Origin: Candidatus Roizmanbacteria bacterium RIFCSPHIGHO2_02_FULL_37_13b
GTDB lineage: Bacteria > Patescibacteriota > Microgenomatia > UBA1406 > HO2-37-13b
DNA length: 64,000 nt
Reading direction: 5' to 3'
Assembly: GCA_001789395.1 (NCBI GenBank)
Contig: MFZK01000014.1
Location: forward strand, 47,130 to 111,129
Both the position numbers and the translations under genes were made by a program. The first letter of the stretch is position 1. Each line of letters opens with the position of its first letter. Below, in pieces: positions 1-21,429 of this stretch. The notes beneath the pieces were generated by a model. That model searched no databases and was not told where the DNA came from. It worked only from the letters and a program-made list of their open reading frames with translations.

Positions 1-2230
1 GATTTTGACTCCTTAAGCCAATCATAAATGAAATTACGACAAACAAACTACCAATCAATCCAAATCCGATGATATAACGGAAATCACTGATGTTGATAAT
101 ACTCTCTGCATGATTCCATTTGAGTTTGGATTGATGTTTACTTTGCGGAGTGAAGGCCAAAGACAGGGCAGGCAAGCCATCAGTGACCAAATTAATATAC
201 AAAATTTGTAAGGCGGTTAAGATAGGCGGAATTCCAATAATCGCTGAGAAAATTACAGCAAATACTTCTGCGGTATTTGTGGTTAATAAATAAATGACGG
301 AGTTTTTTATGTGGTGATAAATTGATCTGCCTTCTTCAATCGCGCTTATTAGTGTTGCAAAATTATCATCGGTGAGGACGATATCGGCGACATCTTTGCT
401 GACATCGGTTCCGCTTAAGCCCATTGCAATACCGATATCAGCTTGTTTTAATGCTAAAGCATCATTTATTCCATCTCCGGTCACAGCAACAGATTCACCT
501 AAGCTTTGAAGTATTTTAACCAATCGATATTTGTGATACGGAGTCGTCCGGGCAAAAATTTTGACCTTTCCTATGATCTTTGAAAGTGCATCGTCAGAGT
601 AGCTATCAAGTTGTTCACCAGTTATAACATCTTCATTTTCTTTAATGATGCCAGCATCAATGCCTATTTTTGCTGCGGTAAATTCATTATCACCGGTTAT
701 CATCAAAACCTTGATGCCGGAATCAAGAGCCGCCTTGACAGCAAATTGAATTCCTGATCTAAGGGGGTCAGAAATAGCGACAAAACCTAAAAAAATTTGA
801 TCTTGGTGTATGTTGCCTTTAAGACTATTTTTATAGGAAAAAGCTAAAGTTCGATAGCCTGTTCTTGCAAGACTTTTTACCTGGTCGATAATTTGTTTAC
901 GATCCATAGTCTTTAATTTCATATTTCGTGAATTATTGAGCCAGTGAGTGCATGAGTTAATTACTGATTCCGGAGCGCCTTTGGTAAATACATAACCATC
1001 TTTATTATTTTTTACCATTACCGACATAGACTTTTTGACTGAATCAAATGCGGCTTCATCTATAATTTGCCAAGATTTTCGGACTTGATCGATATCCATC
1101 CCGTGTTCACGAGCATAAATAAGTAATGCGCCTTCAGTTGGATCACCGATCATATCGTAGCTCTTATCTGCCTTATAAATTAGTGACGAGGTTGAACACA
1201 TTATGCCATTGAGTACTAATAGACGAAAGGCAGGATTAGATTTGTCGATATTAACCTTGCTATCAGATATTTTGCCATCTATTGCTATTTTTTCAACAAC
1301 CATTCTATTGGTAGTTAGAGTTCCGGTCTTGTCTGTTGCAAGGACTGTGATTGATCCTAAGCCTTCGACAGCAGATATTTTTCGAACAATCGCCCCACGT
1401 TTTGCCATCCGTTCAACGCCAATTGCAAGACTAATAGTCATAACCGAAGGTAAACCTTCCGGTACTGCCGCAACAGCAAGACAAATTCCAAAGATAAAAC
1501 TTTCGAGAATATCTCTACTTCTTATGAAAGTTAAAAAAAAGACGACGAGTGATGCCAAGATTCCGGCAGCGCCCATTCTTCCAGTGAATATATCCAATTT
1601 TTTCTGGAGTGGAGTTTTTTGATCATTAATTTGATTGAGACTTTGAGCAATATGACCAAATCGTGTTTTATATCCTGTCTTTATGACCTCTCCAAAGACT
1701 CGTCCTTTTACAATAGTTGTCCCTAAATAAATAATGTTATTTTGATTGTCAGATTCATGTTTAATAACCGGTTGTGATTCGCCCGTCAATGCACTTTCAT
1801 TTACTTCAAAATGCCAAGATTTAAATATTTTTATATCGGCAGGGACGATTGTTCCTTGCTCTAAATGAACAATGTCTCCTTCGACTAAAAATCGATTATC
1901 TATTTCTTTTTCCAGGCCATCTCGAATCACTCTGACCTGTGTGATCGTCATTTTTTTCAATGACAGAAGAGACTGCTCTGTCTTATATTCCTGATATGTA
2001 CCTAGTGCAGCATTAAGAGCCAATATTAAAAAAATAAAGAATGAATCAAGTAAAGCCCCTGAAAAGTAGGAGATTATAGAAGCTCCAATTAAAAGCACAG
2101 ACAGAAAATTATAAAATTGATTGAAAAAGGAAGCAATAACGCGATAATTTCTTTTTTCAGGTATTTGGTTCAGACCATCCCGATTTAATCTTTTTTCTGC
2201 TTCATTTGTTGAAAGACCATTTTTGAGCAT
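1..2230 (-). CDS. P-type (E1-E2) cation-transporting ATPase, type II-like; about 743 N-terminal codons, C-terminus beyond window start
   Basis: The reverse-strand frame is uninterrupted from the ATG (complement of 2228-2230) to position 1. Hand translation gives MLKNGLSTNEAEKRLNRDGLNQIPEKR, PEGLP, the phosphorylation motif DKTGTLT (around 1290-1320) and the hinge motif TGDGINDA. It is absent from the ORF track because it has no stop inside the window. Confidence 0.88.
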   Translation of the reverse strand, partial: MLKNGLSTNEAEKRLNRDGLNQIPEKRNYRVIASFFNQFYNFLSVLLIGASIISYFSGALLDSFFIFLILALNAALGTYQEYKTEQSLLSLKKMTITQVRVIRDGLEKEIDNRFLVEGDIVHLEQGTIVPADIKIFKSWHFEVNESALTGESQPVIKHESDNQNNIIYLGTTIVKGRVFGEVIKTGYKTRFGHIAQSLNQINDQKTPLQKKLDIFTGRMGAAGILASLVVFFLTFIRSRDILESFIFGICLAVAAVPEGLPSVMTISLAIGVERMAKRGAIVRKISAVEGLGSITVLATDKTGTLTTNRMVVEKIAIDGKISDSKVNIDKSNPAFRLLVLNGIMCSTSSLIYKADKSYDMIGDPTEGALLIYAREHGMDIDQVRKSWQIIDEAAFDSVKKSMSVMVKNNKDGYVFTKGAPESVINSCTHWLNNSRNMKLKTMDRKQIIDQVKSLARTGYRTLAFSYKNSLKGNIHQDQIFLGFVAISDPLRSGIQFAVKAALDSGIKVLMITGDNEFTAAKIGIDAGIIKENEDVITGEQLDSYSDDALSKIIGKVKIFARTTPYHKYRLVKILQSLGESVAVTGDGINDALALKQADIGIAMGLSGTDVSKDVADIVLTDDNFATLISAIEEGRSIYHHIKNSVIYLLTTNTAEVFAVIFSAIIGIPPILTALQILYINLVTDGLPALSLAFTPQSKHQSKLKWNHAESIINISDFRYIIGFGLIGSLFVVISFMIGLRSQN

Positions 2231-2273
2231 GACAATATTGATTATAAACAATTTATCGATCTCTTTTTAGTTA

Positions 2274-2302
2274 TTGACGACATATGCTTCGTACTATATA
2301 AT
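2274..2302 (+). promoter_or_regulatory. sigma70-type promoter for the ribosomal protein cluster
   Basis: TTGACG at 2274-2279, a 17-nt spacer, then TATAAT at 2297-2302. It lies about 100 nt upstream of the rplC ATG. Confidence 0.6.
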
Positions 2303-2374
2303 TTACTCTAATGTTAAATAAGACGGCTCTAAACAGTTTTATTTAATTTGTCGGATTGATCGGGTTTTTAAAAA

Positions 2375-2400
2375 GGCCCCAATCTGGGGTTATTTTTTTT
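2375..2400 (+). promoter_or_regulatory. terminator-like hairpin plus U-tract inside the rplC leader (candidate attenuator)
   Basis: GGCCCCA-atc-TGGGGTT stem followed by T8 (2393-2400). It ends 3 nt before the rplC start codon. Confidence 0.4.
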
Positions 2401-2403
2401 ATT

Positions 2404-3081
2404 ATGGCATTTATTTTAGGTCAAAAAAGCAAATCAGAGCAAATGTTTGACGGCAATGGCAATCGCATTGTTGTTACTAATATCGATACTTATCCCTGTT
2501 ATATAGTTAATTTTAATGAAAATGAAACTAAAGGGCAGCTGATAATAAGGCTTGCTCAAGGAAAAATTACTAAAAATAGCAAGCCCTTACAAGGACAGCT
2601 AAAAAAAGCGGGGATTAAAACCCCGCTTCGTTTTTTAAAAGAGATGAAGATACCTATAACTTTCGTTGAAAAATTTGAAAAGAACGGCAAAAAAGCATTT
2701 AAGTTTAACGAAAAAGAAATTGAAGTAGGAATGGAAGTAAAACCAATAGATTTTTTTAAGAAAGATGATATTGTTTCTGTAACCGGTGTCTCCAAAGGAA
2801 AGGGGTTTCAGGGGGTAGTAAGAAGACATCGATTTTCTGGTGGTCCCCGAACACATGGTCAGTCAGATAGAGAAAGAGCTCCAGGGTCGATTGGTTCATC
2901 GACGACTCCGGGCAGGGTCTTAAAAGGTAAGAGAATGGCTGGAAAAATGGGAAAAGAAACAGTAACAGTTAAAAATCTTAAAATTGTCGAGGCTACTGAT
3001 AAACATTTGCTTATCAAAGGGTTAGTTCCAGGCGCTAAGGGATCGTTGATCGCGATTTACTCAATACGCGGTGATAAATAA
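2404..3081 (+). CDS. rplC: 50S ribosomal protein L3
   Basis: ORF 2356..3081. The L3-like N-terminus MAFILGQKSKSEQMFDGNGNRIVVT begins at ATG 2404. Conserved SKGKGFQGVVRRHRFSGGPRTHGQS is present. Confidence 0.95.
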   Translation: MAFILGQKSKSEQMFDGNGNRIVVTNIDTYPCYIVNFNENETKGQLIIRLAQGKITKNSKPLQGQLKKAGIKTPLRFLKEMKIPITFVEKFEKNGKKAFKFNEKEIEVGMEVKPIDFFKKDDIVSVTGVSKGKGFQGVVRRHRFSGGPRTHGQSDRERAPGSIGSSTTPGRVLKGKRMAGKMGKETVTVKNLKIVEATDKHLLIKGLVPGAKGSLIAIYSIRGDK

Positions 3082-3083
3082 AT

Positions 3084-3782
3084 ATGGAAAAAAAATTAAT
3101 TAAAGCGGAGCGTAAGGAGCTTAAAGAAAAAAAGCCTACGATTACAAAGGCAAACAAACTGACGGCCGATGTATATGATATTGAGGGAAAAAAAATTGAG
3201 GGAATAACCTTAGATGAACGAATCTTTAACGTTATTGTATCTGCACGATTAATGGCTCAATATGTTCGAGTATACAATGACAGAACACATCAAGGAACGA
3301 GAGAGACAAAGACAAGAGCCGATGTTATAGGTTCGACGGTTAAAATTTTTCGACAAAAAGGAACAGGAAGAGCGCGTCATGGTAGTAAAAAGGCCCCTAT
3401 CTTTGTTGGAGGTGGTGTAGCTCACGGTCCTCATGCAAAAACCGACTTTTTGACAATAAATAAAAAACAAAAAAGACTAGCACTTTATGGTGCTTTAACT
3501 GCACAATTCAAAAAAAGTAAATTCTTGTTTGTCAAGGGATTAAGAGAGATTGAACCAAAAACTAAGAAAATGATTGAATTTTTTAAAAAAATAAATCTGG
3601 AAAAAAGCAATAAATTACTAATTATCTATCCTATCGATAAATCTAAAAACATTATTCTGTCCGCCAGAAATATCGAGGGTATTAGTCTAATGAATGTAAC
3701 CAATCTAAATGCCATGGAAGTTCTCAAAGCGAAGCATATATTGATGTGTGTAGAAGCTTTAGATTTTTTCAATAAAAAATGA
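3084..3782 (+). CDS. rplD: 50S ribosomal protein L4
   Basis: FRQKGTGRARHGS and APIFVGGGVAHGP motifs. Position after rplC. Confidence 0.95.
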   Translation: MEKKLIKAERKELKEKKPTITKANKLTADVYDIEGKKIEGITLDERIFNVIVSARLMAQYVRVYNDRTHQGTRETKTRADVIGSTVKIFRQKGTGRARHGSKKAPIFVGGGVAHGPHAKTDFLTINKKQKRLALYGALTAQFKKSKFLFVKGLREIEPKTKKMIEFFKKINLEKSNKLLIIYPIDKSKNIILSARNIEGISLMNVTNLNAMEVLKAKHILMCVEALDFFNKK

Positions 3783-4066
3783 ATATAAATGAAATTATTA
3801 TAAAACCAGTAATTACAGAAAAAGGTCTGAACCAGATCAATTCCCAAGTTTATACCTTTGAGGTTTCCATAAAAGCTAATAAATTTCAGATAAAGAAAAC
3901 AGTTGAAGATATGTTTAAAGTCAAAGTGGAAAATGTAAAAACGATGATACGTAAAGGTAAGTCTCGTCGAGTCGGTAAAAAAATGAAGACGAAGAAATTA
4001 TCGCAGCGAAAATTTGCGTACGTAAAAGTCAGTTCAGGTAAAATCGATCTTTTCCCGCATAAATAA
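3779..4066 (+). CDS. rplW: 50S ribosomal protein L23
   Basis: IIKPVITEK N-terminus. ATGA overlap with rplD. Operon position. Confidence 0.93.
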   Translation: MNINEIIIKPVITEKGLNQINSQVYTFEVSIKANKFQIKKTVEDMFKVKVENVKTMIRKGKSRRVGKKMKTKKLSQRKFAYVKVSSGKIDLFPHK

Positions 4067-4067
4067 T

Positions 4068-4844
4068 ATGAATAAATCAACAAACGTTCCAAAGACATTG
4101 AATCCAGAAAAAGTTCTAACAAGGATTCTAAAAAAGAGATCGGGTAGAGACAATTCTGGACAGATTTCAGTTAGACATCAAGGTGGAAGGCAAAAACGAT
4201 ATTATCGTTTTATTGATTCCAGTCGTGATAAAAAAGATATGGAAGCTAAGATAATAGGAGTTGAATACGATCCTAACCGGACCGCAAATATTTCTTTGGT
4301 TGAATATAAAGATGGAGTTAGAAAGTATATTTTGCACGTTGAAGGTCAGATGATAGGCGACAAAATTATATCGTCATCAATAGTTGAGGTTAAAATCGGT
4401 AATGCCATGTTTTTAAAAAATATTCCATTAGGTACACAAATTCACAACGTTGAACTTTATCCTGGTCAGGGAGGGGCTCTTATAAAGAGCGCTGGGTCGA
4501 GTGGAGTAGTCATCGCTAAAGATGAGAAATACGCAGATATCAAATTGCCTTCAAAAGAAGTTCGTAAAATTCTATTGACTTGCATGGCGACAATAGGACA
4601 AATCAGTAACGTTGCTCATAAACTAGAAAAAATAGGCAAAGCCGGACGAAATAGACTAAAGGGGATTCGGCCGACCGTTCGAGGAGTGGCTCAAAACCCT
4701 CGCAGTCATTCGCATGGTGGTGGTGAAGGAAGATCCGGGATCGGTATGCATCCAAAGACTCCTTGGGGTAAATCAGCTATGGGAACGCGAACGAGAAATA
4801 AAAAAAAGTGGAGTAATAAATTAATAGTCAAACGTCGTAACTAG
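4068..4844 (+). CDS. rplB: 50S ribosomal protein L2
   Basis: RHQGGRQKRYYRFID and RGVAQNPRSHSHGGGEGR motifs. Confidence 0.96.
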   Translation: MNKSTNVPKTLNPEKVLTRILKKRSGRDNSGQISVRHQGGRQKRYYRFIDSSRDKKDMEAKIIGVEYDPNRTANISLVEYKDGVRKYILHVEGQMIGDKIISSSIVEVKIGNAMFLKNIPLGTQIHNVELYPGQGGALIKSAGSSGVVIAKDEKYADIKLPSKEVRKILLTCMATIGQISNVAHKLEKIGKAGRNRLKGIRPTVRGVAQNPRSHSHGGGEGRSGIGMHPKTPWGKSAMGTRTRNKKKWSNKLIVKRRN

Positions 4845-4855
4845 GCAATAAAAAC

Positions 4856-5308
4856 ATGGAAGTTAAAGCTTATATAAAGTATCTGAGAATTTCGCCAAAG
4901 AAGTTAAGATTGCTTGTAGATGATATAAAAAGACAGACGCCTAGAGTAGCACTTGAACTTCTTCCTTTAAGTTCAAAGCGAGGTTCTAAATTTCTTTTTA
5001 AAGCGATTAAATCAGCAGTTAATAATGCTAAAGTCAAGATTAGTGCTGACATCGATGATTTACGTTTTAAAGCCATTATAATTGAATCATGAGCAGTACT
5101 GAAGCGATTTCGAGCAGGTAGTAAAGGAAGAGCCAATCAATATAAGAGACGGAGCTCTCACATAAAGGTTATATTAGAAAGTCTAGAAAAAGAAAAAAAT
5201 AAAACTGATATTAAACCTATTGAAACCAACGAGACAAAAAAAATCAAAGTTACAAAAGTGAAAAAGATCCCTCCGCTAAATCAGCAGGGGAAAATAAAAA
5301 AAGAATAA
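4856..5308 (+). CDS. rplV: 50S ribosomal protein L22, interrupted by an in-frame TGA at 5090-5092
   Basis: The ORF track stops at 5092 (78 aa). The same frame continues to TAA at 5306-5308 and encodes AVLKRFRAGSKGRANQYKRRSSHIKVILES, which is the conserved L22 core. rpsC starts at 5310. Confidence 0.85.
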
Positions 5309-5309
5309 T

Positions 5310-5951
5310 ATGGGACAAAAAGTAAATCCAAAAGGATTAAGACTTGGAATTTTGACTACTTGGGATTCAAGATGGATGTTCTCTAACAAAGAATTATATC
5401 GAAAAAGTATTTTGGAAGACGTGAAAATTCGTGAAGGATTAATAAAAAAATTCCAGTTTGCCATAGTTACTCAAGTAGAGATAGAGCGAGCGATTAACAG
5501 GATTACGATAATTATCCATGCTGCCCGTCCGGGAATGATTATCGGTCGAGGTGGGAAAGGATTAGAGGACGTAAAGAAGTTTGTCATGTTAATTATGTCT
5601 TCAAGAAAAAGTGAGATTGATAAAATGAAGATCGAGTTAAAAGTCGAACCGGTAAAAAAACCATATCTTAATGCATATTTTGTGGCGAATGAAATAGCTG
5701 GTAAGTTAATTCGTGGTTTACCTCATCGCGTAGTGGTACATTTTGCCATGAATAAGGCTATGGAATCAGGGGCAAGAGGGATAAAAGTACAGTTAGGTGG
5801 CAGAATTAATGGTGCTGCAATTTCACGTCGAGAAAAATACTATGAAGGGACAGTTCCTGTGTCGACGATTCGTGAAGATATTGATTTTGCACGTTTCCCG
5901 GCCCTGACAAAATCAGGTTATATTGGGATAAAAATTTGGATCGCAAGATAA
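5310..5951 (+). CDS. rpsC: 30S ribosomal protein S3
   Basis: MGQKVNPKGLRLG N-terminus and the KH-domain motif GMIIGRGGKGLE. Confidence 0.96.
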   Translation: MGQKVNPKGLRLGILTTWDSRWMFSNKELYRKSILEDVKIREGLIKKFQFAIVTQVEIERAINRITIIIHAARPGMIIGRGGKGLEDVKKFVMLIMSSRKSEIDKMKIELKVEPVKKPYLNAYFVANEIAGKLIRGLPHRVVVHFAMNKAMESGARGIKVQLGGRINGAAISRREKYYEGTVPVSTIREDIDFARFPALTKSGYIGIKIWIAR

Positions 5952-5954
5952 ATT

Positions 5955-6362
5955 ATGTTAGCACCAAAAAGACAAAAATATCGAAAACAATTCAGAGGAG
6001 TTTGGCGGAAAATTGCAGTAAAAGGAAACGAATTAAACTTTGGTGCCTATGGGTTGAAAACATTGAATTCTGGATGGATATCAGATCGCCAAATTGAGGC
6101 ATCTCGAGTAGCTTTAGCTCGAGCAACGCGGAAAGTTGGCAAATTCTGGCTCAGAATTTTTCCTGATAAACCCTACACAAAAAAACCCCCAGAAGTGACA
6201 ATGGGATCAGGTAAAGGGGACGTTTCTCATTACGTTGCAAGTGTGGTTGCCGGAAAAATATTATTTGAGGTTGATGGATTATCGGAATCTGAAGCACGTG
6301 CAGTTTTTAAAACCATTAGCTCAAAATTACCAGTTAAGACACGGACAATCATTAAATTATGA
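5955..6362 (+). CDS. rplP: 50S ribosomal protein L16
   Basis: MLAPKRQKYRKQFRG N-terminus and MGSGKGDVSHYVA. Confidence 0.96.
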   Translation: MLAPKRQKYRKQFRGVWRKIAVKGNELNFGAYGLKTLNSGWISDRQIEASRVALARATRKVGKFWLRIFPDKPYTKKPPEVTMGSGKGDVSHYVASVVAGKILFEVDGLSESEARAVFKTISSKLPVKTRTIIKL

Positions 6363-6571
6363 AAAAATCTGAGCTACAACAATTGAAAGGTAAACAAAGT
6401 CAAGATTTAGATATAAAAGTTGAAGAATTGAGAAGAAAAATAAATATGTCTCAACTTGATAATAAAGTTAATCCACCAAAAGATTCAAACAGCCTGAGTA
6501 AATTAAAAAAAACACTAGCGCAAATTTTAACAATTAGAAGTGAAAAAGGACTTAAAAAGGGTCAAGTATAA
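6359..6571 (+). CDS. rpmC: 50S ribosomal protein L29
   Basis: Small helical protein in the L16/S17 slot. ATGA overlap with rplP. Confidence 0.85.
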
Positions 6572-6575
6572 TTTT

Positions 6576-6806
6576 ATGGCTAAAATTCTAAATGGGACAG
6601 TTGTATCAACGAAAATGAACAAAACAGTAGTTGTTGAAGTGGAAAGAATTTTTTCTCATGGAGTCTATAAAAAAACAGTGAGAAAGAATAAAAGATTTAA
6701 AGCTCACAATGAGAATTTGGATTTGCATCTCGGTGATAAAGTTATCATTTCTGAAACACGGCCAATTTCAAGAGATAAGCATTTTATTGTTAAAAGTAAG
6801 GAATAA
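6576..6806 (+). CDS. rpsQ: 30S ribosomal protein S17
   Basis: ORF 6540..6806. The S17-like sequence [24 protein letters not shown] starts at ATG 6576, just after the rpmC stop. Confidence 0.93.
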
Positions 6807-6818
6807 TATAAAAGAAAT

Positions 6819-7193
6819 ATGTTGCAGTTAAGATCAGTTATGAAGGTAGCCGATAATTCTGGTGCTAGAGAAGCATATATGATTGGTATTCCAAAAAAAG
6901 GTAACAAAAAAATAGCCTACATTGGGAATATTATTAACGTGGTTGTAAAAAAAGCTGATCCATACTCCCAAATAAAAAGAGGAGATAAATTAGCCGCGGT
7001 TATTGTTCGAACTAGAAAAGAAATGCGACGTAGGGATGGTAGTTATATACGCTTTGATGATAATGCCGTGGTAATTTTACAGGACAAAACATCTCAAGAT
7101 CCAAAAGGAACACGAGTTTTTGGACCGGTGGCACGAGAAATAAAAGATCTAGGATTTAATAAAATTGCTAGTTTGGCTACAGAAATATATTGA
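6819..7193 (+). CDS. rplN: 50S ribosomal protein L14
   Basis: KVADNSGAREAYMIG motif. Operon position. Confidence 0.96.
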   Translation: MLQLRSVMKVADNSGAREAYMIGIPKKGNKKIAYIGNIINVVVKKADPYSQIKRGDKLAAVIVRTRKEMRRRDGSYIRFDDNAVVILQDKTSQDPKGTRVFGPVAREIKDLGFNKIASLATEIY

Positions 7194-7195
7194 TT

Positions 7196-7501
7196 ATGAA
7201 ATTTAAAAAAGGAGACAAAATAAGAGTATTTGTAGGGAAGGATAAAGGACGCGAGGGCAAAATTGAAAAGGTTTATTCCAAAATGAGTAAAGTATTGATA
7301 GTTGGGATAAATATCTACAAAAAACACATAAAAAAGAATGAAAAAATGCCAAAAGGCGGGATAGTAGAATTACCCCGACCAATGGATGTCTCAAAACTTA
7401 TGTTTATTTGTCCAAAATGTAAAGCAGATGTTAAATTAGGATACAAATTTATCGGCCAAAAAAAACTTAGAATTTGCAGAAAATGCGCCGCAGAAGTATG
7501 A
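7196..7501 (+). CDS. rplX: 50S ribosomal protein L24 (KOW) with C-terminal CxxC...CxxC knuckle
   Basis: MKFKKGDKIRVFVGKDKGREGKI KOW motif. First ATG at 7196 (the track ORF begins at TTG 7190). The C-terminus is CPKC-x17-CRKC. Confidence 0.92.
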   Translation: MKFKKGDKIRVFVGKDKGREGKIEKVYSKMSKVLIVGINIYKKHIKKNEKMPKGGIVELPRPMDVSKLMFICPKCKADVKLGYKFIGQKKLRICRKCAAEV

Positions 7502-8034
7502 CAATAATGGATCTTTATCAAAACGAGGTTAGGGCAAAATTGGAGAAAGAATTTAAATTGAAAAATCCTATGCAATGCCCAAAGTTAGTAAAAGTGGTTT
7601 TAAATGTGGGAGCAGGAGAAGCTGTAACCAACAAAAAAGTGCTTGATGATATTGCCGCGGAGCTTGGTACGATTAGTGGTCAGAAACCGATTATTACCCA
7701 TGCGCATCAATCGATTTCCGCCTTCAAAATAAGAGCTGGTATGCCAATCGGCGTCAAAGTTACTCTTAGAGGAAAACGAATGTATGCATTTGTTGAAAAG
7801 CTAATCGGAATTGTACTGCCAAGATTCAGAGATTTTTCGGGTCTTGGAGAAACAGCAGTTGATAAATATGGAAATTTGAATTTAGGAATAACCGAGCAAA
7901 TAATTTTTCCCGAAATCGATTATGATAAAATAGGAAAACTTAGAGGACTGCAGGTTACCATCGTCACAACAGCGAGAAATAAAGAGATGGGGAAGAAGTT
8001 ATTCCAATTGTTAGGAATCCCATTTAAAAGTTGA
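7498..8034 (+). CDS. rplE: 50S ribosomal protein L5
   Basis: ORF 7474..8034. ATG 7498 overlaps the rplX stop. NLGITEQIIFPEIDYDK motif. Confidence 0.95.
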   Translation: MTIMDLYQNEVRAKLEKEFKLKNPMQCPKLVKVVLNVGAGEAVTNKKVLDDIAAELGTISGQKPIITHAHQSISAFKIRAGMPIGVKVTLRGKRMYAFVEKLIGIVLPRFRDFSGLGETAVDKYGNLNLGITEQIIFPEIDYDKIGKLRGLQVTIVTTARNKEMGKKLFQLLGIPFKS

Positions 8035-8050
8035 TTTTTTTCATATCTAA

Positions 8051-8236
8051 ATGGCTAAAAAGTCTAATGTAGTCAAGTTTTTAAAAAAGCAGAAGTTTAC
8101 GAGTAGAGATCACAATCGCTGTCCTTTATGTGGAAGAGCACGGGGGTTTTTAAGACGATTTGGACTTTGTCGAATATGTTTTCGGGAGAAGGCATTAAAA
8201 GGAGAAATTCCCGGTGTTACAAAAATTTCTTGGTAA
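8051..8236 (+). CDS. rpsN: 30S ribosomal protein S14, short zinc-ribbon (type Z) form
   Basis: 61 aa with [23 protein letters not shown]. Confidence 0.95.
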
Positions 8237-8267
8237 GACTTAAAGACTTATTAGTTAAATAAAAAAA

Positions 8268-8552
8268 ATGTCACGATCACTAAAAAAAGGAGCTTATATT
8301 GATCAAAAATTGTTAATAAAAGTTCTTAAACAAAAGGACAAGGGGATAAAAGAACCGATCAAAACCTGGTCACGTGCCTGTCAGATAGCACCAGATTTTG
8401 TTGGAAGTCGTTTTCTAGTCCATACAGGAAATAAATTTATTGAAATCTTTATTTCTGAATCAATGGTAGGACATCGTCTCGGAGAATTTGCACCGACACG
8501 TACTTTTAGAGGTCATGGGAAAGTTACCAAGAGAATTATTGAAAAAACCTAA
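8268..8552 (+). CDS. rpsS: 30S ribosomal protein S19 (in a non-canonical position)
   Basis: [12 protein letters not shown]...[19 protein letters not shown] is unmistakably S19. It lies between rpsN and rpsH instead of between rplB and rplV. Confidence 0.95.
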
Positions 8553-8561
8553 AAACGATTT

Positions 8562-8951
8562 ATGAATAATCCATTCGTTGATCTAATAATTAGAATTAAA
8601 AATGGTTATGGGGCAAGAAAAGATAGTATCGAAGTTAAATACTGCGAACTAAATTTATCAATTCTTGAGGTATTAAAACATAATAAATACATTCACGACT
8701 TTAAGTTAGAAGGCATGGGGCCCAGGAAAAGAATTTTAGTTAAATTAAGCTATATATCTGGAGAACCAATAGTCAAAGGCATAAAGTTAGCTTCTCGATC
8801 AGGAAGAAGAATCTATACTAAAGTTAAAGATTTAAAACAAGTCTTAGGAGGCTTGGGAATGGCAGTATTATCGACTCCTAAGGGCGTTGTAACTGATAAG
8901 CAAGCAAGGAAAATGAAAATTGGTGGTGAAGTACTATTTATAATTTGGTAA
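8562..8951 (+). CDS. rpsH: 30S ribosomal protein S8
   Basis: DLIIRIKNG and GMAVLSTPKGVVTDKQARKMKIGGEVL motifs. Confidence 0.95.
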   Translation: MNNPFVDLIIRIKNGYGARKDSIEVKYCELNLSILEVLKHNKYIHDFKLEGMGPRKRILVKLSYISGEPIVKGIKLASRSGRRIYTKVKDLKQVLGGLGMAVLSTPKGVVTDKQARKMKIGGEVLFIIW

Positions 8952-8958
8952 TGCAAAA

Positions 8959-9513
8959 ATGTCAAAAATAGGAGAAATGCCGATCTCAATAGAATCGGTG
9001 GAAATAAAGATTGATGACAATCAGGTTGAAGTGAAAGGTAGTGAAGGTGTTCTAACACTGACATTGTCTAAGGAGATTTCTGTGGAGAAAAAAGATCAAC
9101 AGTTAATTCTTAAACGTTTGAGTAAGGAAAAAAAAGCTAAAGCATTACATGGTTTATATCGTGCTCTTATTCAAAATGCCGTTTTAGGAGTTGTAAAACC
9201 TTGGGAAAAGAGACTCGAAGTTGTTGGTACAGGATATAAAGTAAAACTACAGGGTGAGGATTTAATCTTCGAAGTAGGCTTTTCTCATCCGGTAATATTC
9301 AAAAGCGTACCGGGTATTAAGTTTAGCGTTGAAGGGAGTAATAAAATAGCTGTTAAGGGGTGTGATAAGCAAATAGTTGGACAGGTAGCACAAAAAATCA
9401 GAGAAATCAAAGACCCTGATCCATATAAAGGTAAAGGTCTGAGGTATGATGGTGAAAAAATAAAATTAAAGCCCGGTAAGAAGGCTAAAACCGTAGGAGT
9501 CGGTGCAAAATAA
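8959..9513 (+). CDS. rplF: 50S ribosomal protein L6
   Basis: MSKIGEMPI start and DPYKGKGLRY motif. Confidence 0.95.
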   Translation: MSKIGEMPISIESVEIKIDDNQVEVKGSEGVLTLTLSKEISVEKKDQQLILKRLSKEKKAKALHGLYRALIQNAVLGVVKPWEKRLEVVGTGYKVKLQGEDLIFEVGFSHPVIFKSVPGIKFSVEGSNKIAVKGCDKQIVGQVAQKIREIKDPDPYKGKGLRYDGEKIKLKPGKKAKTVGVGAK

Positions 9514-9518
9514 ACCTT

Positions 9519-9872
9519 ATGAAAAACAAACTAATCTTGAAAAGAAATAAAAAAAAGTTAAAAGTCAGATCTAAAATAGCTAAAAATACTAAATTATTAC
9601 GAATCAGTGTTTTTCGATCTGATAAAAGGATATATGCTCAGGTAATTGATGATCGTGCTGGAGTTACAATAGCTAATTCATCTGATTATGTTTTGCAAGG
9701 CAATAAAAAAGTGACGAAAACTGAAAAAGCCAAATCAGTAGGCATTGAGCTCGGTAAAAAACTAATAGATTTGAAAAGACTTGAAGCAGTATTTGATCGT
9801 GGACATTATAAATATGAAGGAAGGGTTAAAGCTTTATGTGAAGGATTACGTGAAGCTGGTATTAAAATTTAA
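9519..9872 (+). CDS. rplR: 50S ribosomal protein L18
   Basis: LRISVFRSDKRIYAQVIDD and FDRGHYKYEGRVKAL motifs. Confidence 0.95.
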   Translation: MKNKLILKRNKKKLKVRSKIAKNTKLLRISVFRSDKRIYAQVIDDRAGVTIANSSDYVLQGNKKVTKTEKAKSVGIELGKKLIDLKRLEAVFDRGHYKYEGRVKALCEGLREAGIKI

Positions 9873-9892
9873 GTTTTATTGTTAATAAATAT

Positions 9893-10381
9893 ATGCAAAG
9901 TCAAGAAAAAAATAAAGGTCGTTTTGGTCAAAGACAAAGAGAAAATACTGATGGTATTGAAGAGAAAGTACTACAGATAAAACGAGTATCAAAAAAAACA
10001 CGGGGCGGTAATTATATTAGTTTTTCAGCACTAGTTGCAGTTGGTGATCATAAGGGTCAGGTAGGTATCGGACTTCAGAGAGGATTGGAAGTTCCACAAG
10101 CGATAAAAAAAGCGATTAGATATGCAAGAAAAAGAATGATTAGTGTGCCTCTCTATTCAGGGACACTACCCCATGATGTTAAAGTAAATTACAAATCAGC
10201 GGCTATTATTTTAAGACCTGCACCAAAAGGAGCAGGACTTAAAGCGGGAAGTGTCGTCCGATCAATTCTTAATTTAGTTGGTGTCACTGATGCATCTGCA
10301 AAAATAATTGGTTCAAGAAATCAACTTATCAATACATACGCAACGATTTTAGCCTTAAAAATGTTGAAAAAGCGCGAATAA
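9893..10381 (+). CDS. rpsE: 30S ribosomal protein S5
   Basis: IKRVSKKTRGGNYISFSALVAVGD and GAGLKAGSVVR motifs. Confidence 0.95.
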   Translation: MQSQEKNKGRFGQRQRENTDGIEEKVLQIKRVSKKTRGGNYISFSALVAVGDHKGQVGIGLQRGLEVPQAIKKAIRYARKRMISVPLYSGTLPHDVKVNYKSAAIILRPAPKGAGLKAGSVVRSILNLVGVTDASAKIIGSRNQLINTYATILALKMLKKRE

Positions 10382-10384
10382 ATT

Positions 10385-10825
10385 ATGATAACGCTAAATA
10401 ACTTACCAAAAATAAAGCAAAAAACAAAAAAAAGATTAGGTCGGGGAACGGGAAGTGGAGCGGGTGCAAAATCCGGACGAGGAACGACTCGACATCAGAA
10501 AGCTAGGGAGAAAATAGCTATCTGGTTTGAAGGTGGTCAGAATCGAGTTATTAAAAAATTCCCATTACTTAGGGGTAAAGAAAAAAATAAATCAAAGAGG
10601 TTAAAACCATATTTAATCAATTTTCAACATCTAAGATCTTTTCCGGAGAATGCTGAGGTTACGATTGAGACTTTAATAGAAAAGGAAATTGTGCCTTCTG
10701 ATGCGAAGCGAACAGGAATTAAATTAGTTAACGTTGGTCATGTCGAGAAAAAATTTTTAGTTAAAATTGCCGCTTCACGACAGGCGAAACTAAATATAAT
10801 AAAAGCCGGAGGAAAAATTATATGA
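10385..10825 (+). CDS. rplO: 50S ribosomal protein L15 (follows rpsE after only a 3-nt gap, no L30 gene)
   Basis: RLGRGTGSGAGAKSGRGTTRHQKAR motif. Confidence 0.95.
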   Translation: MITLNNLPKIKQKTKKRLGRGTGSGAGAKSGRGTTRHQKAREKIAIWFEGGQNRVIKKFPLLRGKEKNKSKRLKPYLINFQHLRSFPENAEVTIETLIEKEIVPSDAKRTGIKLVNVGHVEKKFLVKIAASRQAKLNIIKAGGKII

Positions 10826-12105
10826 AAAATGTCTTAGATAAATTAAGAAATGTTTTTCAAGATCCTGTGCTCAGGAAAAAAATTCTTTTTACTTTTGGTC
10901 TTTTTTTTGTTTTTCGAGTCTTTGCTTTTTTGCCAATTCCTGTTGTGGATTTAGTTCGACTTAGAAGTTTGTTTTCTCAAAATCAATTTTTGTCACTACT
11001 GGATATATTTTCCGGAGGTACCCTGATAAATTTTTCAGTGATGGCTTTAGGATTATCACCATTCATCAATGCTTCAATCATAATTCAACTTCTGACATCT
11101 GTTATTCCAAATTTGGAAGCACTTACTAAAGAAGGTGAGCATGGTCGAGCTAAGTTAAACCAATATACACGTTTTTTGACAGTACCCATAACTCTGGTTC
11201 AATCGATTGGCATATATGTTTTACTTCAGAACCAAAAAGTTATCTCGCCCTTGAATTTTATCCAATTTATATCGTTTATTGTCACAATGATGGCAGGGAC
11301 AATGATATTAGTATGGTTTGGAGAATTAATATCGGAATTTGGAATAGGTAATGGTATATCACTTTTGATTTTCACTGGTATAGTAGCAAGAATTCCGGTC
11401 GTTTTTACTCAAACCGCATTGACGATAACCCCTGAATTTATGATAAATTTTTTGATGGTAGCAATCTTAGGTGTCGTCGTCGTAGGTGGCGTTGTCTTTA
11501 TTAATGAAGCGGTCCGTAAGATACCAATCTATTATGCCAAACGTATAAAAGGCAATCGGATTTACCAGGGGGCATCAAATTTTCTGCCGTTGAAATTGAA
11601 CCAAACGGGAATGATTCCAATAATCTTTGCGATCTCTTTTGTATTATTTCCACAACTTGTTGGAAGTTTTTTGACTTATGTAAAAAATCCCGCACTGGCT
11701 TCAATAGGTAAATTTTTAACTTCAGTATTTAACCCCAATGGGTTTTTTTATAATTTTTTTTACTTTATATTAGTAGTCGGATTTACTTTTTTTTACACAA
11801 TGGTTGTATTTAATCCAGAGAAGATCTCAGAAGAAATTCAAAAACATGGTGGTTTTATCCCTGGTATTCGTCCGGGGAGCGCGACGAAAGAATATTTAGA
11901 AAAAATTTTATACAGGCTGACAGTAGTCGGAGCCTTTTTTTTAGGTTCAATAGCGATACTACCAGCAATTGTTTCCTCAGTTACCGGAATTAAAAATATC
12001 ATAATCGGTGGAGCAGGAATATTAATAGTCGTATCAGTAGTCCTTGAGACATTTAAGCAAATTGAAGCGCAAATGGTTATGAAAAGTTACGACAAATTTT
12101 TATAA
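10822..12105 (+). CDS. secY: preprotein translocase subunit SecY
   Basis: 427 aa, multi-pass membrane protein with GISPFINASIIIQLL-type and GGFIPGIRPG motifs. Canonical position after rplO. Confidence 0.96.
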   Translation: MKNVLDKLRNVFQDPVLRKKILFTFGLFFVFRVFAFLPIPVVDLVRLRSLFSQNQFLSLLDIFSGGTLINFSVMALGLSPFINASIIIQLLTSVIPNLEALTKEGEHGRAKLNQYTRFLTVPITLVQSIGIYVLLQNQKVISPLNFIQFISFIVTMMAGTMILVWFGELISEFGIGNGISLLIFTGIVARIPVVFTQTALTITPEFMINFLMVAILGVVVVGGVVFINEAVRKIPIYYAKRIKGNRIYQGASNFLPLKLNQTGMIPIIFAISFVLFPQLVGSFLTYVKNPALASIGKFLTSVFNPNGFFYNFFYFILVVGFTFFYTMVVFNPEKISEEIQKHGGFIPGIRPGSATKEYLEKILYRLTVVGAFFLGSIAILPAIVSSVTGIKNIIIGGAGILIVVSVVLETFKQIEAQMVMKSYDKFL

Positions 12106-12106
12106 T

Positions 12107-12280
12107 ATGGCAAAAAAAGGCAATCGAATAAAACTTGGTTTAACTTGCACGATCTGTAAAAGGCATAATTACGTTACTGAAAAAAGCAAAATCAACACAA
12201 CGGAATCGCTAAAATTCATGAAATATTGTTTGAAATGCCGAAAAAAAACCGAACATAAAGAAAAGAAAAAGTTGGATTAA
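12107..12280 (+). CDS. rpmG: 50S ribosomal protein L33 (Cys-containing form)
   Basis: Hand-translated 57 aa: MAKKGNRIKLGLTCTICKRHNYVTEKSKINTTESLKFMKYCLKCRKKTEHKEKKKLD. Too short for the ORF track. Confidence 0.88.
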   Translation: MAKKGNRIKLGLTCTICKRHNYVTEKSKINTTESLKFMKYCLKCRKKTEHKEKKKLD

Positions 12281-12306
12281 TAACATATAACATACCGCAT
12301 AATCTA

Positions 12307-12858
12307 ATGAAACTAATTTTAATTGGAATGCCCGGTTCGGGTAAATCAACCCAGGGTAATTTATTATCTAAAGAATTAAATATTCCATATCTTTCTACAG
12401 GCGACATTTTTCGTACACTTTCAAAAGAGCCCACCCCTACTGGACGATATATAAAGGAAATAATCGATAAAGGTAGTCTCATTCCGGATGACAAAACGAT
12501 TCAAATTGTGACTGAATATTTATCGCGTTCTGACTATAAAGATGGATACATACTCGATGGCTTTCCTCGAACGTCTATACAAGCGATGAATTTTAAAGAT
12601 AATATTGACTATGTACTATACCTCAGCATTGATGATGTAGAGTCTTTGAACAGGTTGTTAAAACGACAGGACAAACTTCGACAAGATGACACAGTAAACA
12701 CGATTAAAAAAAGAATCGAGATATTTCATAAGCAAACGCAACCCGTGCTTGATTTTTATAAGCCCAAGGGTTTGCTACAAATTGTTGATGGCAGCAAATC
12801 TATAGAAGGAATTCACCAAGTTATTATAGATATTCTAAAAAACATCCATGAAATCTAA
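12307..12858 (+). CDS. adk: adenylate kinase (short-lid form)
   Basis: P-loop GMPGSGKSTQ, plus ILDGFPRT and IKKRIEIFHKQTQPVLDFY. Confidence 0.92.
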   Translation: MKLILIGMPGSGKSTQGNLLSKELNIPYLSTGDIFRTLSKEPTPTGRYIKEIIDKGSLIPDDKTIQIVTEYLSRSDYKDGYILDGFPRTSIQAMNFKDNIDYVLYLSIDDVESLNRLLKRQDKLRQDDTVNTIKKRIEIFHKQTQPVLDFYKPKGLLQIVDGSKSIEGIHQVIIDILKNIHEI

Positions 12859-13420
12859 ACTGCTGCTTTGTATTGTCGGATTACCGGGAGCAGGTAAAAG
12901 CGAGGCGGCAAAGTTTTTTTTTGAGAAAAAAATACCGGTTGTCGCTTTTGGTAAATGGATAAATGATTTTGTCACGAAAAATAAGTTAACCCATACAGTT
13001 TCAGTCCATAAAAAAATAAGTGGCGATCTAAGAAAAAGACATGGTATGGAAGCAATGGCCAAACTTAATGAACAGAATATTCGTTCGCTATTTAAAAATA
13101 ACAATTTTATTGTGGTTGATGGCCTACGCTCTTTCGAGGAATATGTTTATTTAAAGCGGCATTTATCCGATGCGGAAATCATCATTTTAGCTATCTGGAC
13201 TGATAAGAAGAGCCGTTATATACGTATAAAAAATAGAGCTACAAGAAGTGAATTAGGAGGCGAGAAGCGGGATTTGGGTGAACTTGCAGAAACCAATTTA
13301 GGTCCAACCTTCACCTTTGCCGATTATATCGTGCTTAATCAAGGTTCTCTCCCTGATTTAAACTTAGGGTTGAGTAAGCTTTATGGTGAGATATTGAAAT
13401 CCGTAAAGAAAGCAAAATGA
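12848..13420 (+). CDS. second P-loop nucleotide/nucleoside-monophosphate kinase-like protein (dephospho-CoA kinase / UPF0200-like)
   Basis: P-loop GLPGAGKSE near the N-terminus, about 190 aa. Overlaps both adk and map. The family assignment is tentative. Confidence 0.5.
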   Translation: MKSKLLLCIVGLPGAGKSEAAKFFFEKKIPVVAFGKWINDFVTKNKLTHTVSVHKKISGDLRKRHGMEAMAKLNEQNIRSLFKNNNFIVVDGLRSFEEYVYLKRHLSDAEIIILAIWTDKKSRYIRIKNRATRSELGGEKRDLGELAETNLGPTFTFADYIVLNQGSLPDLNLGLSKLYGEILKSVKKAK

Positions 13421-14169
13421 TAAAACTTAAAAATGATAATGAGATAGATCTTATTAAACAAGGAGGGTTGATTTTAAAGGCGGTGTTTGAGGATATAAAA
13501 CCAGCTGTTATTGCAGGTAAAAGAACCAAAGATATTGATGATAAAATTGAATCTATAATTGTTAGCCATGGAGGAAGCCCTGGATTTAAAAAAGTCCCTA
13601 ACTATAACTTCGCTAGTTGTTTGTGTATTAACGATCAAGTGGTGCATACGCCTCCATCGGAGCAGGTCTTAGCAGAAGGAGATATATTTACTATTGATTG
13701 TGGAGTATATTTCAAAGGATTCCATACTGATGCAGCAGATACGTTTATTGTCGGTGATACGAAAGATAGGGCCAAACAAGTTTTTTTGAACGCAGGAAAA
13801 GAGACTTTAGATCATGCAATTGCACAGGCTCATGTAGGTAATAGAATTGGTCATATATCTCAAACAATAGATATTAAAATAAAACAAACAGGTTATAGTA
13901 TCATTAAGGAGTTGACAGGTCATGGAATTGGACGAGATTTACATGAGGATCCGATGATACCCGGTTTTTTGAATGAACCAATTGAAAATACACCTCAGAT
14001 TGTGCCCGGTATGGTCTTAGCGATAGAGGTAATTTATGCTGAAAAATCAGAAAGAATTAAGTCAGAAGAGGGGAGTCGGTGGTCACTTGTGACCGAAAAG
14101 AATGATATTTCGGCATGTTTTGAAGCTACAATAGCAGTGACTGAAACTAAGACCTTAATTTTAACGTGA
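13417..14169 (+). CDS. map: methionine aminopeptidase type I
   Basis: VVHTPP, FTIDCG, HTDAADTF, GHGIGRDLHEDP and LAIEV metal-ligand context. Canonical position. Confidence 0.94.
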   Translation: MIKLKNDNEIDLIKQGGLILKAVFEDIKPAVIAGKRTKDIDDKIESIIVSHGGSPGFKKVPNYNFASCLCINDQVVHTPPSEQVLAEGDIFTIDCGVYFKGFHTDAADTFIVGDTKDRAKQVFLNAGKETLDHAIAQAHVGNRIGHISQTIDIKIKQTGYSIIKELTGHGIGRDLHEDPMIPGFLNEPIENTPQIVPGMVLAIEVIYAEKSERIKSEEGSRWSLVTEKNDISACFEATIAVTETKTLILT

Positions 14170-14193
14170 ATTTATGGTAGAATATATGTTTTT

Positions 14194-14415
14194 ATGAAGG
14201 TAGATAATATTATTGTTGAAGGTCAAGTGTTAGAAAATTTACCAAACACACTATTTAGAGTCAAATTAGGCCATGAATGTGGTGAGAAAATGATTTTATG
14301 TTATCTCTCGGGCAAAATGAGAAAAAATTATATAAAAATCTTGCCTGGAGACAGAGTTAGAATTGAGATGACAAAGTACGATACGGAAAGAGGTCGCATT
14401 GTTTATAGAGTTTAA
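14194..14415 (+). CDS. infA: translation initiation factor IF-1
   Basis: [18 protein letters not shown]...[24 protein letters not shown]. Confidence 0.96.
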
Positions 14416-14420
14416 TAAAA

Positions 14421-14534
14421 ATGAAGGTAAAATCATCAGTTAGAAAAATTTGTCCCAAATGCAAAGTCATTAGTCGAAAAAAAAGAGTTTATATTATTTG
14501 TGACAATAAAAAGCATAAACAAAGACAGGGTTAA
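14421..14534 (+). CDS. rpmJ: 50S ribosomal protein L36
   Basis: Hand-translated 37 aa: [37 protein letters not shown]. Confidence 0.93.
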
Positions 14535-14557
14535 AATAAATTATTTATTAAATCAAA

Positions 14558-14968
14558 ATGGCAAGAATATTAGGAATAAATTTAAAAGATGATAAAAGAT
14601 TGGATTATTCTTTGACGCTTTTATATGGAGTGGGTAGATCAAATGTCAAGCAGATATTAGCTTCAGTAAATATTAAGGGTGAGAAAAAAATTAAAGAATT
14701 GTCAGAAGATGATTTAAGAAAAATCAGTAGTTTTATTGAAAAAAATGTAAAAGTTGAGGGTAATCTGAAAGAAGAAATCGGAGGTAACATAAAAAGACTT
14801 AGAGAAATAGGATCATTTAGGGGAATGAGACATTCACGGGGCTTGCCAGCACGAGGTCAGAGGACCAAATCTAATGCAAGGACGAAGCGAGGAAAAAGAA
14901 AAACAGTTGGTGCTTTGAAGAAGGAAGATATGGCCAAGATTCAGCAAAAAACAGTTCCTGCTAAATAA
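14558..14968 (+). CDS. rpsM: 30S ribosomal protein S13
   Basis: MARILGINL start and GSFRGMRHSRGLPARGQRTKSNART. Confidence 0.96.
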   Translation: MARILGINLKDDKRLDYSLTLLYGVGRSNVKQILASVNIKGEKKIKELSEDDLRKISSFIEKNVKVEGNLKEEIGGNIKRLREIGSFRGMRHSRGLPARGQRTKSNARTKRGKRKTVGALKKEDMAKIQQKTVPAK

Positions 14969-14990
14969 TTAATAATTAAATTATTATCTA

Positions 14991-15368
14991 ATGCAATCAA
15001 AAAAAAAGACTAAAAAAATTGTGGAGAAGGGTAGAATATATATTACCGCGACTTTTAACAATACTTTAATTACGTTAACTGATGAAAGAGGGGCGCCTTT
15101 TTTATTTGGAGGTTGTGGTATGTATGGTTTTGCTGGAACGAGAAAGTCGACCCCATATGCAGCTACAGTGACGGTAAAAGCAACAGTAAAGAAAGGGATT
15201 GATGAATCGGCTTTGCGGGAAGTTGATATATACATAAAAGGAATTGGTCCGGGAAGAGAAGCATCGCTTAAAGCTATTCGATCCATGGGACTCGATGTTG
15301 ATAAAATAATTGACATTACTCCGATTCCTCACAATGGAGTAAGACCACCTAAAATTAGACGAGGATAA
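14991..15368 (+). CDS. rpsK: 30S ribosomal protein S11
   Basis: IYITATFNNTLITLTDERG and TPIPHNGVRPPKIRR motifs. Confidence 0.96.
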   Translation: MQSKKKTKKIVEKGRIYITATFNNTLITLTDERGAPFLFGGCGMYGFAGTRKSTPYAATVTVKATVKKGIDESALREVDIYIKGIGPGREASLKAIRSMGLDVDKIIDITPIPHNGVRPPKIRRG

Positions 15369-15384
15369 TTATAAATTTACTATA

Positions 15385-15412
15385 ACGTGAAACGTGTTAC
15401 GTGATACGTGTT
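15385..15412 (+). repeat. four tandem heptads (ACGTGWW)x4 directly upstream of rpsD
   Basis: ACGTG starts at 15385, 15392, 15399 and 15406, an exact 7-nt period: ACGTGAA ACGTGTT ACGTGAT ACGTGTT. Confidence 0.85.
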
Positions 15413-15421
15413 AACGATTTT

Positions 15422-16039
15422 ATGAGATATACAGGTCCAAAAAACAGATTAGCCAGAAGAGAGGGAGCAGATCTAGGGTTAAAGACTCCCGGTTCAAAGA
15501 CACATAGCACATTACTTCGTAGGCTAAATATCGTACCGGGACAACATGGTACCTCAAGACGTAGAAAAACAACTGATTATGGTATACAGCTCAGAGCAAA
15601 ACAAAAATTAAAAAGAATTTTTGGGCTTTCTGAGAAACAACTAGCCATTTATTACGCTAAGTCAATAAAAGCCAAAGGTAACACAATAGAACTTCTTATT
15701 CAAAAATTGGAAAATAGACTGGATAATATAATTTTCCGTTTGGGTTTCTCACCGACAAGAGCAGCGGCCAGACAATTGGTAAATCATGGCAATGTCATGG
15801 TTAATGATAAAAAAATGACCATTCCGTCCTATCAAGGGAAAGTCGGTGACATAATTTCTCTATCGGAGACAGCCATAAAAATTCCTTATATTGCAAGCTT
15901 CCTGGAAAAAAAAGATCTAATTCTTCCTTCTTGGTTGAATCGCCAGGCAAATTCAGGCAAGATTATTTCGAAGATCAATCTTGATGAATTTAAAGAAGAT
16001 GTCCAGTTACAATTAGTAGTTGAGTTTTACTCAAGATAA
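15422..16039 (+). CDS. rpsD: 30S ribosomal protein S4
   Basis: ORF 15401..16039 begins at a GTG. The S4-like MRYTGPKNRLARREG starts at ATG 15422. Confidence 0.95.
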   Translation: MRYTGPKNRLARREGADLGLKTPGSKTHSTLLRRLNIVPGQHGTSRRRKTTDYGIQLRAKQKLKRIFGLSEKQLAIYYAKSIKAKGNTIELLIQKLENRLDNIIFRLGFSPTRAAARQLVNHGNVMVNDKKMTIPSYQGKVGDIISLSETAIKIPYIASFLEKKDLILPSWLNRQANSGKIISKINLDEFKEDVQLQLVVEFYSR

Positions 16040-16093
16040 TTAGATTAAAAATTTATCTCTCAAAAAAATAAAGGGAGAAATCAAAATTAAACT

Positions 16094-17038
16094 ATGTTAG
16101 AGCCAGAATTTATCACAGAAAAGTCAGAAGAGGATAAACAATATGGAAAGTTTATCTTAAATCCGTTGCCATCTGGATTTGGTCACACACTAGGCAATGC
16201 ATTGCGCCGGACCTTGCTTTCCACTATTCCCGGGGTGGCTGTTTGTTACGTTAAGATTAATGATGCTGTTCATCCTTTCAGCACAATTTCAGGAGTGAAA
16301 GAATCAGTATTGGACTTAATATTGAATCTTAAATTGCTAAGATTCAAAGTTGTTGGAGATGGTCCATATGAAGTGTCATTATCCACAAAAGGCATTGGTA
16401 AAATAACCGGATCCGATTTTAAAGGCAGCGATGTTAGCGTTGTCAATAAAGATCAATATATCGCAGAAATTACATCTGCCAAAACCAAACTCGATATTAC
16501 TTTATTTTTGGAAAAAGGACTTGGTTTTTCTTCATCTGAAGAAAAAGAAAATAAAGAATACGGCAAAATTGCAGTTGATTCAGTTTACTCCCCGGTACTA
16601 CGTGTCAACTACCAGGTGGAAGGGTCACGGGTAGGTAGAAAAACAAATTTTGATCGTTTAACCATGGAAATCTGGACTGATGAATCAATTACCCCATCAG
16701 AAAGCCTGAAAAAATGTGCTCAACAATTATCAGGGTTCTTTAGTCACATTCTCTCAGGTCGAGATATAAAACGAGCTGATTCGGATGAGAAGATGAATAA
16801 AGATCAACTTACCCCGAAGCTCGATAAAAAAGTCTATCAAACAATAATTGACGAGCTGGATCTGCCGACCAGAGTCATTAATGCACTTCTTCGCGAAGGC
16901 ATCGAGACGGTAGAAGACTTGTTAAAGCGCGGAAAAGAAGATTTAGTCAATCTTAAAGGGGTCGGTAAGAAATCGCTCGACTTAATAGAGAAAGAGTTAG
17001 AAAAGCTATCAATCCCATTTGAAGATACCCATGTATAA
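16094..17038 (+). CDS. rpoA: DNA-directed RNA polymerase subunit alpha
   Basis: GKFILNPLPSGFGHTLGNALRRTLLS in the N-terminal domain. C-terminal domain LDLPTRVINALLREGIETVEDL. Confidence 0.96.
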   Translation: MLEPEFITEKSEEDKQYGKFILNPLPSGFGHTLGNALRRTLLSTIPGVAVCYVKINDAVHPFSTISGVKESVLDLILNLKLLRFKVVGDGPYEVSLSTKGIGKITGSDFKGSDVSVVNKDQYIAEITSAKTKLDITLFLEKGLGFSSSEEKENKEYGKIAVDSVYSPVLRVNYQVEGSRVGRKTNFDRLTMEIWTDESITPSESLKKCAQQLSGFFSHILSGRDIKRADSDEKMNKDQLTPKLDKKVYQTIIDELDLPTRVINALLREGIETVEDLLKRGKEDLVNLKGVGKKSLDLIEKELEKLSIPFEDTHV

Positions 17039-17525: not shown

Positions 17526-17526
17526 T

Positions 17527-17976: not shown

Positions 17977-17979
17977 AAT

Positions 17980-18435: not shown

Positions 18436-18561
18436 GCTTGTTCTTCCGACGATGTCCCGTCAAATCGCACCACGAGCCGTGTTCGAATAGAACTGAAAAG
18501 GCGAGTGGTAAGATCGTGTTGGGGCAAGACGCAAGAAACAATCTCCAAAGCGATAAAACCA

Positions 18562-19064: not shown

Positions 19065-19100
19065 ATAGACATAATAATAAGATATTATTAACATATTGTC

Positions 19101-19133: not shown

Positions 19134-19141
19134 ATATAATA

Positions 19142-19170: not shown

Positions 19171-19204
19171 AATTAAACAGATTATAAATTAATAATAGCT
19201 TTTT

Positions 19205-21423: not shown

Positions 21424-21429
21424 GCAGTA

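Follow-up and report, generated by a model that had tools for sequence, protein, structure and literature searches.

The rplV gene, which encodes the essential ribosomal protein uL22, is interrupted by an in-frame TGA in this assembly of a Candidatus Roizmanbacteria genome. The question raised by the locus is whether this codon is read through or otherwise decoded in a special way, whether it is a genuine nonsense allele of the organism, or whether it is an error carried by one assembly. We analyzed a stretch of 64,000 nucleotides around the gene (hereafter the window, to whose first letter all positions refer). Translation of the window reproduced the frame described in an earlier reading of the sequence alone: it starts at ATG 4856, runs for 78 codons to TGA 5090-5092 and then continues free of stops, through AVLKRFRAGSKGRANQYKRRSSHIKVILES, up to TAA 5306-5308. 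The features at the locus are as follows.

4068..4844, + strand: rplB (uL2), directly upstream of rplV, from the gene call and Pfam.
4856..5308, + strand: rplV (uL22), 150 codons; codon 79 is a stop in the window's assembly.
5090..5092, + strand: in-frame TGA in rplV, with T at base 5090 as against G (GGA, Gly79) in the strain's other assemblies.
5093..5308, + strand: open rplV continuation; it codes for the beta-hairpin, the last strand and a C-terminal tail rich in Lys.
5310..5951, + strand: rpsC (uS3), starting 1 nt past the rplV TAA; its protein is identical on 21 contigs.

The called rplV products are assigned to Ribosomal_L22 (PF00237) in Pfam, and once Gly79 is restored, residues 1 to 107 can be aligned along their entire length with uL22 chains of known structure (best E=2e-20). 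In the alignment to these chains, codon 79 falls on the Gly in (D/E)EG, a motif located immediately N-terminal of the tunnel hairpin. We also collected 15 related genomes via uS3, comprising Roizmanbacteria, Woesebacteria and other Microgenomates with uS3 identities of 49-67%. L22 is uninterrupted and carries Gly at the codon-79 column in 15 of 15, with a stop at this column in none of them. Neither Cys nor Sec occurs there in the 15 relatives or the solved structures, which have Gly throughout. The motif alignment and the invariance of this residue bear out the proposal that the TGA sits at a conserved L22 glycine. Beyond the canonical fold of 107 to 110 residues, uL22 has a Lys/Glu-rich C-terminal extension of ∼43 aa (5177-5305); similar tails are present in some relatives and are poorly conserved.

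A product truncated at codon 79 would lack both the tunnel hairpin and the final strand of this essential protein, with no possible restart. The first in-frame ATG, GTG or TTG 3′ of the TGA is codon 135, past the conserved uL22 core, no + strand ORF of ≥40 aa is listed over the continuation at 5093..5308, and the window holds no second rplV.

The gene occupies its usual S10/spc operon position, in the order rplB-rplV-rpsC-rplP and onward, with the rpsC ATG at 5310, in agreement with the earlier observation that rpsC begins 1 nt after the extended frame. The operon also shows several departures from the usual order. The rpsS gene (uS19) is absent between rplB and rplV and is located at 8268-8552, between rpsN (8051-8236) and rpsH (8562-8951). 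The same relocation is seen in the 8 closer relatives whose contigs reach that far (L011, L012, L014-L018 and L020; uS3 63-67% identical), and in L019 rpsS is likewise missing between rplB and rplV, the contig ending before rpsN. The canonical L2-S19-L22 order is kept in 5 more distant relatives (L021-L025, ∼49% identical), and this rearrangement of an operon that is otherwise highly conserved seems to be specific to one clade. A gene for an 844-aa P-type cation ATPase (window 1-2265, minus strand; 4555-7375 of contig L027) splits tuf-rpsJ (S10) from rplC, breaking the usual S10-L3 adjacency. The rpmD gene (L30) is missing between rpsE and rplO (9893-10825), as is usual for CPR bacteria, and secY is followed by two adjoining kinase-like genes (12307-13420), one with ADK and AAA_17/18 matches and the other with AAA_17/18 only.

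The genetic code of the window was assessed on 73 other genes with 19,014 codons, taken from the sources' gene calls and our own ORFs. Under table 11 these genes contain no internal stop, and hence no internal TGA. They terminate in 43 TAA, 24 TGA and 6 TAG codons, 11 gene pairs are joined by ATGA stop/start overlaps, and GGA is an ordinary Gly codon with 459 occurrences. The P-type ATPase gene that crosses the left end of the window is also free of internal TGA. A tRNA scan found no tRNA gene in the window, a scan at gathering thresholds found no Rfam family, and a search of the six-frame translation for the GGQ motif returned no release-factor-like sequence. With 0 internal TGA in 19,014 codons and 24 TGA terminators, both UGA=Gly (table 25) and UGA=Trp (table 4) are refuted within the window, which uses the standard code; a genome-wide sense code for UGA is excluded. 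The sequence-only reading had called table 25 unlikely on the same grounds, and the 73 intact genes, the TGA terminators and the overlaps uphold it. A reassigned code would have in its favor only the place of this one codon at a conserved Gly and, given these counts, is exceedingly improbable.

The state of base 5090 was then compared among assemblies of the strain, with allele counts taken from an exact-protein index. A 35-nt site pattern with N at the variable base gave no match in metagenome_contigs or genome_contigs, where these Rifle contigs are evidently absent. In an alignment of 8 rplV copies from seven assemblies, 452 of 453 columns are identical and the sole variable column is base 5090. 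Within this alignment, T is found in the window and in the window's own contig, identified by the exact-protein look-up as k141_1175040 of ENA assembly ERZ4903137, while GGA is present at 5090-5092 in JGI 3300002502, JGI 3300025311, ERZ27254846, ERZ28563591, ERZ4903070 and SRR3989338. The suggestion that one substitution separates GGA from TGA is thus confirmed by the sibling assemblies, which differ at base 5090 alone. The exact-protein look-up placed the intact 150-aa uL22 on 19 contigs, of which 9 exceed 50 kb; this protein is GenBank OGK53331.1 of Candidatus Roizmanbacteria bacterium RIFCSPLOWO2_02_FULL_36_11, a sibling MAG whose name, ending in _36_11, implies ∼11x coverage under the bin naming convention. 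The truncated form was found on three contigs, from ERZ4903137 (k141_1175040, 162 kb), from ERZ27254754 and from the GenBank MAG (a scaffold of 167.8 kb, locus tag A3C23), and its 78-aa product is deposited as OGK20591.1, "hypothetical protein A3C23_05350" of a Candidatus Roizmanbacteria MAG. T at 5090 is private to those three contigs, and the strain is otherwise identical. Support for GGA had been named beforehand as the refuting test for a genuine stop; it came from independent assemblies, on 19 contigs, and not from the reads of this assembly.

The T-carrying assemblies come from more than one pipeline and their contig ends differ. The ENA accessions form parallel batches, and other samples show the same contig ends across batches; for these reasons the three T contigs appear to be three assemblies of one sample and would go back to one read set.

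A Logan contig (L026, SRR2090155_28594) corresponds to window 4047-5089 and ends exactly one base before the variable site. It carries another G>T change at 5084 (GAA to TAA), 6 nt upstream of 5090, so that two G>T nonsense changes fall within 7 nt in different read sets. Two 8-bp palindromes, ATTATAAT and CAGTACTG, flank the site, and the region may be a local error hot-spot.

We extended the comparison between the window and the other assemblies of the population to about 55.6 kb. Over this span base 5090 is the only difference private to the window. The Rifle aquifer Roizmanbacteria population to which the window belongs, and of which many assemblies exist, is essentially clonal across samples. 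The contigs compared, with the window positions that each covers, are given below.

1-15,308: L027; only 5090 differs.
14,481-27,294: L037; 14 differences, within 22,318-22,743.
22,617-35,632: L035; 1 difference, private to L035.
22,662-35,632: L036; 1 difference, private to L036.
34,565-48,710 (14,146 nt): L042; 0 differences.
34,565-46,126 (11,562 nt): L043; 0 differences.
34,541-55,607, with N gaps: L041; 2 differences.

The isolated discrepancies between assemblies, written as nucleotide change and effect, are the following.

5084: G>T, E77*, in Logan contig L026.
5971: G>T, uL16 R6I, in L009 and L010.
22318: T>G, L>R.
22743: A>C, T>P.
23154 and 23193: G>T, near a contig end.
26170: G>A, the sole synonymous transition.
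27926: G>T, T>K.
55150: T>G, L>R.
55173: A>C, S>R.

Almost all of these are G-T or A-C transversions, in either direction, and all but one of those scored alter an amino acid. Four-color Illumina chemistry has two dye-crosstalk pairs, G/T and A/C, and G>T is also the signature of oxidized template; natural polymorphism is rich in transitions and in synonymous changes. The spectrum is thus unlike that of real polymorphism under purifying selection and suggests a pattern of errors. The change at 5971 is common to two short contigs of different assembly pipelines and hits the conserved Arg6 of uL16 (MLAPKR); it is another reproducible G>T discrepancy and is probably deleterious.

The dense patch of differences in L037, at 22608-22658, lies inside a complete M17 leucyl aminopeptidase gene (21930-23432). 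This gene forms an island (about 21950-23500) with 58-74% GC per 100-nt window, mostly 62-69%, in a genome of 36% GC, and the composition changes stepwise at the gene ends. In two other assemblies, contigs begin inside the gene (22617 and 22662). It is probably either a recent acquisition shared with a high-GC member of the community or a junction in the assembly graph. A ParE-toxin/PhdYeFM-antitoxin pair (18562-19094, minus strand) lies directly downstream of rpsI, followed by a 712-aa protein and, further on, a 697-aa protein, both with no Pfam match on record.

Of the four explanations left standing by the sequence-only reading, a sequencing error and a very recent nonsense mutation fit these data, and readthrough or suppression and a split L22 are unsupported. 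We consider it rather probable that base 5090 owes its T to an error in the reads or the consensus, confined to one read set and carried into an uncurated MAG, and infer an artefact rather than a real allele. The organism's rplV would then be an ordinary intact gene, with GGA (Gly) as codon 79 and a 150-aa uL22 as product, and the T would be a single G-to-T miscall that entered the consensus of apparently one sample. The likely cause would be thin coverage at the site together with either an Illumina G/T miscall or a template fragment that was oxidized or altered by PCR; every pipeline assembling those reads would reproduce the same T, no special decoding would be involved and the public 78-aa "hypothetical protein" would be an artefact of base 5090. 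This reading is favored by the absence of the variant from independent assemblies of the population (T on 3 contigs vs G on 19). An occasional nonsense artefact is also to be expected, since 13.8% of G-to-T changes in the window's coding sequence create a stop. Errors of this kind are documented in uncurated MAGs (a CPR genome of 1.13 Mb had 13), from which they pass into databases as wrong protein sequences (Chen et al. 2020, PMC7111523). The recurrence of T in three assemblies by more than one pipeline counts against an artefact: it implies that at least two reads carry T, probably along the better-covered path, and a random single-read error would not suffice unless local coverage was very low or the reads were mates or duplicates of one fragment.

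That recurrence is at the same time the main argument for a real allele. It is possible, though we doubt it, that T is an unprogrammed and very recent GGA-to-TGA nonsense variant, present in the population of one sample or in damaged or relic DNA; such a private variant would be deleterious and transient and would have no dedicated decoding mechanism. G-to-T is a common oxidative mutation in vivo, apart from this base the strain matches the GGA carriers, which is what a very young mutation would show, and the Logan contig of SRR2090155 stops at 5089 as a de Bruijn unitig would at a branch between two alleles. However, a truncating allele of an essential ribosomal protein, with no second rplV in the window, should not dominate assemblies, and a persistent real allele is unlikely because the target is essential, single copy and part of an intact operon. 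The error-like spectrum of the inter-assembly discrepancies also speaks against a real variant, and the second G-to-T nonsense change in the same Logan contig is more easily attributed to local noise than to two lethal alleles.

If UGA79 were real and the gene expressed, a near-cognate tRNA-Trp or a Gly-inserting suppressor could read through the codon and supply enough full-length uL22. UGA is the leakiest stop codon, UGA=Gly occurs in Gracilibacteria and Absconditabacteria, the downstream frame is fully open and conserved, and the stop falls on a Gly codon; a suppressed UGA79 could even mark the beginning of a shift to the UGA=Gly code of other CPR lineages. We nevertheless regard readthrough or suppression as improbable. 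The open frame is uninformative, since a one-base error or a mutation one generation old would leave exactly that, and the Gly position is not special because GGA is one of just three codons (GAA, GAG and GGA) that a G-to-T change turns into a stop. Conservation of the stop, by which programmed readthrough is recognized, was not found: the codon is GGA on 19 contigs of the same strain and no stop occurs in the 15 relatives. Because other assemblies of this strain carry GGA without any further difference, neither programmed readthrough nor suppression finds support. TGA also works as a terminator in 24 of the 73 genes, and the window offers no downstream structure, tRNA or Rfam element. The stretch 5085-5150 (66 nt) has a folding energy of -6.2 kcal/mol, no better than shuffled sequences (z=0.37), and no SECIS-like fold was found 3′ of the UGA. 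More improbable still is the stronger claim that a genuine T prevails in one aquifer sample, where the cells would live on because suppression or high-level readthrough decodes UGA79 as Gly or Trp, making this organism a living intermediate toward UGA=Gly.

A two-piece uL22 and selenocysteine at the UGA have nothing in their favor except the open frame, and we give them almost no credence. The split gene was rejected because translation could not restart before codon 135, by which point the conserved core has ended, and no + strand ORF of ≥40 aa is listed there. Selenocysteine was rejected for want of a SECIS-like fold in the 66 nt from 5085 and of any Rfam match in the window, and because the homologues have Gly, never Cys or Sec.

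The locus can also be compared with known systems. The consensus and local assembly errors of uncurated MAGs (Chen et al. 2020, PMC7111523) are alike in that one unsupported base breaks a gene, leaves a truncated product annotated as "hypothetical protein" and is missing from the population's sibling assemblies; those errors were mainly regions without perfect read support, found by read mapping, whereas here assemblies were compared and the base recurs in three of them. Genetic code 25 of the Gracilibacteria and Absconditabacteria (SR1) shares an in-frame UGA at a conserved Gly in a CPR bacterium. In code-25 genomes, however, UGA is frequent inside genes and is not a terminator, whereas here it occurs once in ∼19,000 codons and ends a third of the genes, and the same strain has GGA at the codon. 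Programmed readthrough and selenocysteine insertion likewise show an in-frame UGA followed by an open, conserved frame, but the present stop is unconserved even within the strain and comes with neither RNA structure nor Cys/Sec homologues. A nonsense polymorphism or nascent pseudogene is alike in that one G-to-T transversion makes a premature stop in an otherwise undecayed gene, and unlike in that the target is an essential, single-copy ribosomal protein in an otherwise intact operon.

There is nothing novel at base 5090 as a biological feature. The locus stands as a caution that one unverified base in a draft MAG can mimic the recoding of an essential gene, and the truncated "hypothetical protein" OGK20591.1 that stems from this base is already in public databases. 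Comparison of sibling assemblies of a MAG population quickly exposes such one-base anomalies. If the T were true, this CPR bacterium would tolerate a nonsense codon in one of its ribosomal protein genes, of which there are few natural cases; the present evidence disfavors this.
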